Of a stretch of DNA of 44,622 nucleotides, positions 40,633-44,046 are shown piece after piece. The position numbers were made by a program, and so were the translations under genes. Source of the DNA: Kagunavirus BCH953P1; the sequence record OZ035754.1; one strand, written 5' to 3'. The notes under the pieces are model-generated. The model saw only the letters and a program-made list of their open reading frames with translations, was not told the DNA's origin and did no database searches. Positions within the stretch are counted from its first letter, which is position 1. Each line of letters starts with the position of its first letter.

Positions 40633-40897
40633 GTTATTCTGGTTCGGTGGTATGCTGGCAATCGGAGGCACATCGCTGTTTAATGTGTACCATCCGAGTA
40701 TTGACGACGGGCTATTTGGCCGGGTGCTCTATATCCTGACTGCTATCGTCTGCGCTGCCGGATGTATCCACCTGTTACAGGGCAGCATGTCGCCAACGCT
40801 GCCTGAGACATTAATCACATTAGTTGCGCTGCGCCAGATTCGCCAGGCGTGGCTGGCATACGGAGGACATAAGCGTGTCTCGAAACATTTCAGATAA
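40625..40897 (+). CDS. second small membrane protein of the lysis cassette (holin/antiholin-like)
   Basis: 90 aa, two hydrophobic segments; start at internal ATG of track ORF 40472..40897. Confidence 0.45.
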   Translation: MNELFWFGGMLAIGGTSLFNVYHPSIDDGLFGRVLYILTAIVCAAGCIHLLQGSMSPTLPETLITLVALRQIRQAWLAYGGHKRVSKHFR

Positions 40898-41363
40898 TGG
40901 ATTGCATTTCACCGCCGCGTTTGAGGGGTTCCGCGGAACTGCGTACCGCGCTACGCCGAACGAGAAGTACCTGACCATAGGCTACGGTCACTACGGACCG
41001 GACGTAACACCTGGCAAGACCATCACGCCAGGTCAGGGCCTCCTGTTACTGAATCGCGATATGGCTAAGGCCGTAGCTGCGGTTGATGCGGCGGCGCACC
41101 ATTCACTGACGCAGGCGCAGTTTGATGCTGTGTGCGACCTGGTCTATAACGCGGGTGCTGGTGTGATTGCCGCTACTACCGGCACGGGCAAGGCGCTGCG
41201 TTCTGGAGATGTTACGACACTGCGGGCCAAGCTGGCGCTGTTCATCAACCAGAACGGCAAACCGTTACTCGGCCTGCGTCGCCGTACCGCCGGTCGTCTG
41301 GCTCTGTTCGACGGCAAACCATGGCAAGAGGCAGAGGCTATCGGGCGCGCGGTGAAAGGTTGA
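40875..41363 (+). CDS. endolysin, T4/lambda-type lysozyme (glycoside hydrolase family 24)
   Basis: Catalytic-region motif FEGFRGTAY...TIGYGH; GTG start with GGAGGA 7 nt upstream (track ORF starts 40824). Confidence 0.75.
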   Translation: MSRNISDNGLHFTAAFEGFRGTAYRATPNEKYLTIGYGHYGPDVTPGKTITPGQGLLLLNRDMAKAVAAVDAAAHHSLTQAQFDAVCDLVYNAGAGVIAATTGTGKALRSGDVTTLRAKLALFINQNGKPLLGLRRRTAGRLALFDGKPWQEAEAIGRAVKG

Positions 41364-41427
41364 CACCTGAGACTAATCCGACGATACTTAAATCACCTCC
41401 TGCTCCATCCCTCTACTCTCCAGTTTT

Positions 41428-41460
41428 ATCCCGGCCCTGACCCAGCCGGGATTTTTTTTT
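41428..41460 (+). terminator. rho-independent terminator (atcccggc-loop-gccgggat then T9)
   Basis: GC stem followed by nine T, seen directly after the endolysin gene. Confidence 0.75.
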
Positions 41461-41482
41461 ATCTATTTTCTGCAATGACTAG

Positions 41483-41511
41483 TTGACTATTACTCTCACA
41501 CCAATTATATT
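41483..41511 (+). promoter_or_regulatory. sigma70 promoter P8 (TTGACT-N17-TATATT)
   Basis: Strong consensus match, directly after the terminator and about 35 nt upstream of 41545. Confidence 0.55.
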
Positions 41512-41544
41512 TACTCCATCGACAACGAGAACGGAGTAGAGAAG

Positions 41545-41793
41545 ATGAGTAACGTATCGACGATAGAAATAACCGAGGAACTTGAAGCTAAATGCATCGC
41601 ATGGACTATGGATAACGACCCGGTTGCTATGCGTAAATTTCCAATGAAAATCACGGATACCGAGGCATTCAAAGACGCACAACTGATGGCACGTATCGCC
41701 GTTAGTAACCTGAGCAACAGCATTCCGGCAGATGCGTTCTGGTTCGCCGCGATGCAGACACTGAAAGCAGCTTATGCAGGAGAGAAGAAATGA
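41545..41793 (+). CDS. hypothetical protein (82 aa)
   Basis: Track ORF; SD GGAGTAGAGAAG. Confidence 0.5.
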   Translation: MSNVSTIEITEELEAKCIAWTMDNDPVAMRKFPMKITDTEAFKDAQLMARIAVSNLSNSIPADAFWFAAMQTLKAAYAGEKK

Positions 41794-41954
41794 TTAAGTT
41801 AGCTACTGATTTAGTCCCTGGCGATGTTCTATTCATAGATAACCGCGACGGCGGGTATTTTGTGGAGGTTAAACGCGTATTCGAGGACTCGGGTATTTTA
41901 GTTGTTAACGGTGACATTGTATTCCTGACTACCGATTATGTTGAGGTTAAGTGA
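41790..41954 (+). CDS. hypothetical small protein (54 aa), paralog of 42109..42279
   Basis: Read from sequence; ATGA overlap; shares L..D...GD...ID...GGY.VEVKR...D......V.......T.DYVEV pattern with the paralog. Confidence 0.4.
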   Translation: MIKLATDLVPGDVLFIDNRDGGYFVEVKRVFEDSGILVVNGDIVFLTTDYVEVK

Positions 41955-42112
41955 TGAGCGAACAAGGCCCGGCAAGCCGACCATTACGCGTAGGCCGTAA
42001 AGTTAGTCACACCCCGTTCCCGACACGCGAGGAACTGATGAAACGCAACAGTTTCCCGGGGCCGGACAAGAACAAGTATCTCAATCGCATGTGGGGAGAG
42101 CGTAAAGTATGA
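41954..42112 (+). CDS. hypothetical small protein (52 aa)
   Basis: Read from sequence; overlaps both neighbours. Confidence 0.3.
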   Translation: MSEQGPASRPLRVGRKVSHTPFPTREELMKRNSFPGPDKNKYLNRMWGERKV

Positions 42113-42279
42113 AAAAGTTAATTGCAGATGTTGAGCTGGGCGATGTTATCCGTATCGATGACGGCTACGGCGGCTACGATGTAGAGGTGAAGCGAATCGA
42201 TTGGGATTCTATGCTGCCGTTTGTCACTATTAATCGTGAAATCATGTTCGCCAAAACTGATTTAGTAGAGGTTCGATAA
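42109..42279 (+). CDS. hypothetical small protein (56 aa), paralog of 41790..41954
   Basis: Read from sequence. Confidence 0.4.
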   Translation: MKKLIADVELGDVIRIDDGYGGYDVEVKRIDWDSMLPFVTINREIMFAKTDLVEVR

Positions 42280-42503
42280 TGACTAACAACGAATACGAGA
42301 AACTTAGCGTCGAATCCGCGACTGGTGAATCTGAAATAGCGTGGATTGACGTCCACATCGAACACCACTTACGGCAGGTAGATAATCTTATGGAACGCCG
42401 CCGTGAACTGATTAACCGCTTCAACCTGAACAAGGGGTTCGCTATTTCTGATGATTTCGATGGAGATTACCGAAATGGCGATTTTTATGAGGGGGCTGAA
42501 TAA
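42279..42503 (+). CDS. hypothetical protein (74 aa)
   Basis: Track ORF. Confidence 0.5.
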   Translation: MTNNEYEKLSVESATGESEIAWIDVHIEHHLRQVDNLMERRRELINRFNLNKGFAISDDFDGDYRNGDFYEGAE

Positions 42504-42742
42504 TGCCTAAAATCACAATCGCATCGCTCGAGCGCCGTGTTCTGGTGCTTGAGTCGGAGAAACAGACGTTAGGCGGGCAACTGTCAATCAACGGTGAGTT
42601 TCAACTGGAGGCGTTTAAGTTGTTGCTTGATAAGTTGAAAGAGGGTGAAAAGCCTTGCGAGCATGATTACTATCTACATGTGGTTGGTGGGTTACATCGC
42701 GCCACGTGCATTAAGTGCGGTGAAGCGTATGGAGTTGCCTAA
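42503..42742 (+). CDS. hypothetical protein with zinc-ribbon-like motif (PCEH ... CIKCG)
   Basis: Track ORF; motif resembles the repeats in 38646..39155. Confidence 0.5.
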   Translation: MPKITIASLERRVLVLESEKQTLGGQLSINGEFQLEAFKLLLDKLKEGEKPCEHDYYLHVVGGLHRATCIKCGEAYGVA

Positions 42743-42911
42743 ACCAGTAGTTATCGATGGCGTACTGTGGAAACCCTACTCGGTTAACCACATCGACGCA
42801 GACGGGAAGAAGTTTAGCTTCTACATTTTTGCAATTAGCCGGGAGCACGCCGCCTGCGTGGTAGACGATATACGAGAAACGGCGTGGCTTGGTGATGAGA
42901 TAGTGGGGTAA
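42729..42911 (+). CDS. hypothetical protein (60 aa)
   Basis: Internal ATG of track ORF 42645..42911. Confidence 0.4.
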   Translation: MELPKPVVIDGVLWKPYSVNHIDADGKKFSFYIFAISREHAACVVDDIRETAWLGDEIVG

Positions 42912-42913
42912 TT

Positions 42914-43144
42914 ATGTTTCACGAACTGAAGATATTACCTGAGCATTTTGAGCCTGTTATGGCAGGAATCAAGCTGGCGGAACTTCGATTAAACGACCGC
43001 GACTTCAAGGAAGATGACACTCTGTGTCTGCGAGAATACGAAAACGGTGAATACACAGGCCGTATCGTTTACCGCCGCATCATTCATGTTGCGGACGTAG
43101 GGGTTTACCTACCCGGGTACGTGCTATTAAGTATGGAGGATTGA
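42914..43144 (+). CDS. ASCH-like (DUF3850-type) small protein
   Basis: 76 aa; ELKILPEHFEPVMAGIK..ELRLNDRDF..DDTLCLREY pattern typical of DUF3850. Confidence 0.5.
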   Translation: MFHELKILPEHFEPVMAGIKLAELRLNDRDFKEDDTLCLREYENGEYTGRIVYRRIIHVADVGVYLPGYVLLSMED

Positions 43145-43146
43145 TT

Positions 43147-43317
43147 ATGTTCAGCGACATCAACGCAGCAATCGAAGAGGCAATCTGGCGTCGTTACAAC
43201 GGCGAGCAACAGCGGCACTTCTGCCTGGTGCAACGCGGTAACATGATTGCCGTAGTGCAGGACCGCGATAACAAATATCCGAATGCGATGTGGACAACGA
43301 GGAATTTCTTAGAATGA
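43147..43317 (+). CDS. hypothetical small protein (56 aa)
   Basis: Read from sequence. Confidence 0.35.
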   Translation: MFSDINAAIEEAIWRRYNGEQQRHFCLVQRGNMIAVVQDRDNKYPNAMWTTRNFLE

Positions 43318-43550
43318 TTACCAGCATTCCGAACCTGATTAAAGAATTCGGCACGATGGCGGAGACATGCCGACAAACCGGCATCAACGAAATGACGATT
43401 GCGAAGTACAGCAAAGACGTGAACTGCGAGCGCCACGTAATTTATAACAACCGTCTGATGACGCACGTTAAAACAAGCCCGGTGTTATTCACGCGCCGGG
43501 GTATCACTAAAACTGAGCAACGCATCGCTAAAGAGGAGAGCGGAGAATGA
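43314..43550 (+). CDS. hypothetical protein with possible HTH (78 aa)
   Basis: Internal ATG of track ORF 43290..43550; ATGA overlap. Confidence 0.4.
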   Translation: MITSIPNLIKEFGTMAETCRQTGINEMTIAKYSKDVNCERHVIYNNRLMTHVKTSPVLFTRRGITKTEQRIAKEESGE

Positions 43551-44012: not shown

Positions 44013-44020
44013 CAACACCA

Positions 44021-44046
44021 AAAGCCCTCCGTAGAGGGCTTTTCTG
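44021..44046 (+). terminator. rho-independent terminator (aagccctc-cgta-gagggctt then ttctgt)
   Basis: Seen directly, closes the early plus-strand block before the terminase genes. Confidence 0.55.

Follow-up and report, generated by a model that had tools for sequence, protein, structure and literature searches.

The window analysed here, a stretch of 44,622 nucleotides from Kagunavirus BCH953P1 (sequence record OZ035754.1), carries two tiny genes, A and B, that resemble each other and lie on either side of a third gene, a member of DUF2737 (PF10930), to which both are unrelated in sequence, charge and predicted structure. How did such an arrangement come about, and what do A and B do? A first-pass annotation, made from the sequence alone, had proposed a local duplication of a tiny early gene and had assigned no function. 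We find A and B to be previously uncatalogued small accessory genes that are mobile and lie in a hypervariable region of the phage.

Table 1. Features around genes A and B, numbered from the first nucleotide of the window.
Feature	Position	Strand	Description
Endolysin (Phage_lysozyme)	40824-41363		upstream of the small-gene operon
Intergenic region 3' of the endolysin gene	41360..41511	+	two sigma-70-like promoter matches
Sigma-70-like match TTGACA-17-GATACT	41360-41388		consensus only
Sigma-70-like match TTGACT-17-TATATT	41483-41511		consensus only
82-aa ORF	41545..41793	+	C-terminal residues 29-82 are phrog_2180 (E=2.5e-28)
Gene A	41790..41954	+	54 aa, pI 4.2; divergent upstream-type member of family X, HMM 79.9 bits
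DUF2737 gene	41954..42112	+	52 aa, pI 11.0; PF10930 E=8.6e-10, phrog_4684 E=6.6e-32
Gene B	42109..42279	+	56 aa, pI 4.5; downstream-type member of family X, HMM 110.5 bits
74-aa gene MTNNEYEKL... (phrog_1402)	42279..42503	+	default downstream neighbour of DUF2737
ASCH-like DUF3850 protein	42914-43144		76 aa, E=1.8e-18; operon member; its family, phrog_986, is labelled 'RNA-binding protein'
NinH-like protein	43290-43550		86 aa; operon member; 21.8 bits, below the Pfam threshold of 29.8
Hairpin AAAAGCCCTC-TACG-GAGGGCTTTT	44020-44043		perfect 10-bp GC-rich stem, A/T runs on both sides; directly after the small-gene cluster

The three short reading frames lie where the first-pass annotation had placed them and give exactly the translations it listed, and the overlap of start and stop codons that it described extends to all four junctions. 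The stop of the upstream gene and the start of A share ATGA (41790-41793), the stop of A and the start of DUF2737 form TGATG (41952-41956), ATGA is again shared between the stop of DUF2737 and the start of B (42109-42112), and the stop of B meets the start of the next gene in TAATG (42277-42281). Ahead of every start stands GGAG or GAGG, which the last codons of the preceding gene encode. The relationship between A and B, which carry charges of -5.5 and -4.5 at pH 7, also holds: BLASTP aligns the two proteins over their full length with 27 of 56 residues identical (48%), 66% positives and an E-value of 9e-13. Comparison with orthologues from other contigs gives dN/dS ratios of 0.10-0.17 for A and 0.08-0.21 for B, indicating purifying selection, and B shares 86% protein identity with a copy in a 125-kb T5-like contig, a comparison in which synonymous sites are saturated. 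Given this purifying selection and an AlphaFold model with a pLDDT of 94.4, A and B are genuine coding genes. The reading of these frames as chance open frames or a non-coding repeat, to which we give almost no credence, can draw on their very short length, on their annotation as 'hypothetical protein' or not at all and on their lack of a database family, but it has to contend with the strong purifying selection, with conservation across phage genera, with the confident fold of the family and with the Shine-Dalgarno-like motifs and coupled starts. We conclude that A and B are real, coupled protein-coding genes and that A, DUF2737 and B are part of a translationally coupled small-gene operon between endolysin and terminase.

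Profile searches, put forward earlier as a check, assigned the middle gene to DUF2737 and gave nothing above threshold for A and B. The middle gene scores 38.8 bits against PF10930, for which the gathering threshold is 25. Its length is taken as 52 aa from the ATG because homologues begin MSEQG; starting at the GTG at 41951 would make it 53 aa. About 550 phage records contain DUF2737, with nearly every Jerseyvirus and Kagunavirus genome and many lambdoid phages among them, for example HK620 (hkaI), HK97 and P22 (in the ea region, next to eaE); in lambdoid phages it likewise sits amid non-essential small accessory genes. Our search of the literature on DUF2737 returned one incidental mention.

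In metagenomic proteins DUF2737 is fused to at least five unrelated downstream sequences besides the relatives of A and B. This suggests either frequent read-through at overlapping junctions or a role for DUF2737 as an N-terminal module, with a conserved P-[ST]-REEL-x-RNSF motif that resembles a short linear motif; the overlapping junctions of this gene evidently give rise to read-through fusions often. Metagenomic proteins with such C-terminal fusions (P0067, P0068, P0071, P0072, P0077, P0096, P0112, P0116, P0126, P0149 and P0174) have as partners a transmembrane segment, helical tails, the MTNNEY gene or an internal repeat of the DUF2737 motif itself.

We name the family to which A and B belong X; its members are acidic proteins of 53-63 aa. 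An alignment of 33 sequences was assembled, and HMMs built for X and for DUF2737 were run over every fetched locus; a six-frame HMM scan of the window found no copies of X besides A and B. The earlier description of tiny genes with overlapping codons and no assigned function holds. In the database searches A and B match no Pfam, PHROG, NCBIfam or PADLOC family (PHROG at E≤0.01, NCBIfam and PADLOC at E≤1). A PHROG scan across the whole family gave only scattered matches with E>0.002, and a profile search of PDB sequences gave nothing above threshold. Membership of DUF7454 (PF24253) did not hold either, as B scores 15.7 bits (E=0.014) against a gathering threshold of 27 and A has no match; sub-threshold similarity to DUF7454 was seen in 7 of the 33 X members (best E=5.8e-4), and a literature search found nothing on that family.

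The codons for the C-terminal V-E-V-(K/R) residues of X (GTTGAGGTTAAG at 41940-41956 and GTAGAGGTTCGA at 42265-42281) include a GAGG Shine-Dalgarno-like motif for the next gene, so conservation of this C terminus may in part reflect a nucleotide-level constraint.

X accounts for 56 clusters in 5.8 billion proteins. Its profile makes 15 matches at E≤1e-3 among 1.84 billion representatives, and several of these are long proteins with four to seven matched stretches, which we take to be spurious. Among 50,697 phage records, two have an A-type match and seven a B-type match, from six distinct cultured phages, and X was not found in GTDB species genomes, complete E. coli genomes or plasmids. X is a new and very rare family, uncatalogued in Pfam and PHROGs, that combines a confident fold with strong purifying selection.

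Rare as it is, X is carried by Kagunavirus, Jerseyvirus, Cornellvirus-like contigs, Hafnia phage TS33, Klebsiella Jedunavirus, Pantoea phage AAM22 and the 125-kb T5-like contig, and it has spread horizontally among unrelated virulent enterobacterial phages. In the complete genome of Klebsiella Jedunavirus 1611E-K2-1, X lies between a helicase and a nuclease and DUF2737 is absent; in Pantoea phage AAM22 and the T5-like contig, X occurs with no DUF2737 within ±3 kb. The nuclease, a PD-(D/E)xK-like protein of 159 aa, was considered as a general neighbour of X and rejected, being found beside X in Jedunavirus-like phages only, which form one syntenic lineage; the link fails again in the T5-like contig, where the neighbour of X has no BLASTP match to the Jedunavirus nuclease. 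Among Jedunavirus-like loci, positions 1-2645 of L025 and L026 hold, upstream of X, an SNF2/ResIII helicase with Hom_end_hint and Hom_end intein/homing-endonuclease domains. The T5-like contig (L021; Logan SRR31228211) carries its B-type X near a split nrdD, the NRDD (anaerobic ribonucleotide reductase) gene calls being separated by genes that match HNH_3.

The AlphaFold model of X, computed from the 33-sequence alignment, consists of seven short strands with no helix of four or more residues, and X is predicted to be an all-β small barrel of SH3/Tudor-like form. When this model was compared with the PDB by Foldseek, the best matches were Tudor, chromo and KOW domains, none of them significant (E≥0.48, TM 0.4-0.54). 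SH3, Tudor, chromo and KOW barrels, with 53BP1, UHRF1 and the Spt5 KOW domain as neighbours, come closest to the compact short-strand topology that is predicted for X, but no match is significant at query-normalised TM values of at most 0.54 and no sequence signature is shared; furthermore, X is strongly acidic, whereas nucleic-acid-binding barrels are not. This negative charge argues against nucleic-acid binding. Foldseek against BFVD returned many uncharacterised small viral proteins, of which A0A6G5YBQ9, V5R996 and Gp52.1 of Streptomyces phage BT1 share the predicted X fold with TM values of 0.78-0.92. A0A6G5YBQ9 is itself a member of family X (48% identity); for most BFVD matches homology to X is uncertain because identity is below 25%.

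Our best guess is that X has a protein-binding accessory role. Each X protein would be soluble and would bind or modulate a partner protein of positive charge, serving host take-over or counter-defence and acting alone, with DUF2737 not an obligate partner; A and B probably have diverged specificities. Accessory regions of phages typically hold genes for host take-over and counter-defence (bioRxiv 10.1101/2023.04.06.535777). The accessory genes of Silas et al. (10.1101/2023.04.06.535777) are, like X, small, present or absent in collinear genomes, bounded by exact borders, replaced by many alternative occupants and spread horizontally between unrelated phages; they differ in that no counter-defence or other phenotype is known for X, and a peptide-string search of the supplements of that screen did not find X sequences. 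Its rarity, fold and selection make X a reasonable candidate for accessory-gene screens directed at host take-over or anti-defence.

Within Guernsey-like phages, X keeps to one place. In 18 distinct contigs all 20 X genes or domains abut DUF2737, with codons that overlap or lie at most 6 nt apart. A-type genes lie directly upstream of DUF2737 in the window and in contigs L003 (Salmonella phage L223), L008, L009, L010 and L019, and B-type genes directly downstream in the window, L007, L012, L013, L014, L015 and L027. A is precisely absent from L007, L012, L013, L014 and L027, and B from L019, L001 and L002, the breaks falling on the ATG overlaps. By BLASTN, the phrog_2180 gene of L014 and L027 adjoins DUF2737 and A (41790-41953) is cleanly missing, as is the B segment (42113-42276) in L019. 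Cornellvirus-like contigs carry a third type, as C1 upstream of DUF2737 (L022, L023, L024) and C2 downstream of it (L016, L022, L024), L023 and L016 being single-sided. Two of these contigs, both metagenomic, contain a second X-DUF2737-X sandwich (L022, 3001-3531; L024, 205-735).

Other genes also occupy these positions. Across 51 Guernsey-like loci DUF2737 has at least 11 types of upstream neighbour and at least 8 types downstream. The default upstream neighbour is the phrog_2180 gene (MKITDTEAFKD...), and among 30 loci sampled by DUF2737 similarity alone it fills the upstream position in 14, with the MTNNEY/phrog_1402 gene downstream in 26; X takes the upstream slot in three of the 30 and the downstream slot in one. 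Both flanks of DUF2737 are hypervariable slots and general insertion hot spots, which explains part of the adjacency of X and DUF2737 without invoking function. Three slot alternatives from other Kagunaviruses, phiSD1 gp42, gp43 and gp45, were considered as remote homologues of X and rejected (hhalign probability ≤0.3% each).

A and B thus show the behaviour of accessory cassettes: exact presence or absence in collinear relatives, alternative genes in the same slot and horizontal spread. Since the cassette borders fall at overlapping stop and start codons and the GGAG or GAGG is encoded upstream, insertion keeps translational coupling. X would be a mobile accessory-gene cassette of virulent Enterobacterales phages that, in Guernseyvirinae, would fill one or both of the slots beside DUF2737, between the lysis genes and terminase. 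The locus offers a clean example of tiny phage genes moving as exact cassettes beside an anchor gene with their coupling kept.

How, then, did one phage come to hold two? A is 94% identical to its counterpart in L019 and B 95% identical to that in L027, against 48-50% between A and B themselves, whose DNA reaches 71% identity over a 56-nt stretch only. In a neighbour-joining tree the A clade branches outside the rest of family X, which includes the copy from the T5-like contig, and B-type sequences fall together with those of Jedunavirus, Pantoea and the C type. As A is outgroup to copies in unrelated genera, A and B parted no later than the family spread. Both have closer orthologues in single-copy phages, A-type in five other contigs and B-type in six. 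The best relative also changes along the locus: the A-only contig L019 is best for the promoter region, the phrog_2180 gene, A and the 5' half of DUF2737 (93-96%), and B-only contigs are best for the 3' half of DUF2737 (95-100%) and for B (89-95%). Of the local duplication proposed at first, the paralogy stands; a simple local event is not supported, A and B not being sisters and each having its closest relatives in single-copy phages. The marks of a recent local duplication, copies that are nearest relatives and keep similarity in their DNA, were found in the separate C1/C2 pair of L022 and were missing from A and B, which, on these comparisons, we regard as old paralogues. The window would instead hold an A-type and a B-type copy joined by recombination of an 'A-DUF2737' and a 'DUF2737-B' genome, the exchange having taken place in the conserved DUF2737 gene or at its junctions. 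Recombination is the most likely origin of the pair, and a recent duplication in place is unlikely.

An older duplication is a more serious competitor, although we still consider it unlikely. Here X would have been duplicated in place across DUF2737 long ago, the window would have kept the double state, single copies would have arisen by differential loss, and B-type genes would have been exported to other phage groups. Paralogues on both sides of one gene speak for such a history, as does the clade-specific position, A-type being always upstream and B-type always downstream. So do C1 and C2, sisters (73% identity) around DUF2737 in L022 and L024, which we attribute from their sequences to a separate duplication or gene conversion; such events across DUF2737 therefore do occur. 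Against this, two copies are rarely found (in the window, its twin, L022 and L024), a single one being the rule, A and B have almost no DNA similarity, the mosaic segments find their best matches to left and right in different genomes, and the A clade branches off outside copies from unrelated phage genera. Differential loss from an ancestral double state matches the tree as well as recombination does, and it is a possible history because the shortness (159 nt) and conservation of DUF2737 preclude a breakpoint test. Overall we lean towards a joint reading in which A and B are functional, anciently diverged members of X that travel as mobile cassettes and the window is a recombinant.

A functional bond between the neighbours could also account for their adjacency. 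X and DUF2737 might form a two-part module in which the acidic barrel acts on the basic, mostly disordered DUF2737 as binder, chaperone or antagonist; we rate this as quite improbable. It would fit the contact with DUF2737 in 20 of 20 cases in the Guernsey-like contigs, the appearance of the sandwich in two lineages and the opposite charges of the partners (pI 4.2 and 4.5 against 11.0), as well as the in-frame DUF2737::X fusions of Hafnia phage TS33 and P0047. At these fusion loci (L005 and L020/P0047), in the Hafnia phage and a related contig, DUF2737 and X make up one ORF of 106-107 aa. Yet a complete Jedunavirus genome and other phages have X but not DUF2737, over 95% of the phages with DUF2737 have no X, and the fusion partners of DUF2737 include many unrelated downstream genes, so that fusion is not specific to X. 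AlphaFold of the natural fusion P0047 gave no confident docking (pTM 0.47; pLDDT about 90 for X and 47-69 for the DUF2737 part), and the flanks of DUF2737 are general insertion hot spots. A fuller version is very doubtful: the acidic mini-barrel would bind the DUF2737 peptide as chaperone, antagonist or specificity subunit, and selection for a second, diverged X would have produced the A/B and C1/C2 sandwiches, with gene fusion in the Hafnia phages. We prefer to see X as a protein-binding accessory that would act by itself, and its recurrent flanking of DUF2737 as a mildly intriguing pattern. Were the link functional, it would give a first handle on DUF2737, a family that hundreds of phages of Salmonella and E. 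coli carry, P22-like and HK97-like ones among them.

Similarity searches with positions 41400-42800 gave 99.9% identity to Kagunavirus BCH953P1 OZ035805.1 and piecewise matches to over 440 Escherichia and Salmonella phages of the Guernseyvirinae, and in relatives the small-gene cluster continues to the small and large terminase genes. The operon likely starts in the region 3' of the endolysin gene, at predicted promoters. This region is 89-96% identical in most related phages and 76% identical in Jerseyvirus L223, and the annotation of phage fBC-Eco01 predicts host promoters at the equivalent place; sigma-70-like matches upstream of the small genes are not enriched (8 against 6.0±2.3 in shuffles). 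In the transcriptome of Kagunavirus vB_Eco_K1B4, lysozyme (gene 018) and NinH (gene 023) both belong to the 'middle' class (PMC12645636, the sole Kagunavirus time course that we found), and the NinH-like gene of the window lies within the post-lysis cluster that also holds A, DUF2737 and B. These data do not confirm the 'early' label of the first-pass annotation. The hairpin that follows the cluster may be a bidirectional terminator before the terminase genes.

The 82-aa ORF upstream of A resembles an in-frame fusion. Its first 19 or so codons match the 5' end of the 65-aa phiSD1 gp40 (MGNVSTIEITEELEVKCIA...), and about 40 nt of unique sequence separate this gp40-like start from a complete 49-aa phrog_2180 gene. 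In L014 and L027 the phrog_2180 gene begins at the start position of the 82-aa ORF, without the 95-nt insert.
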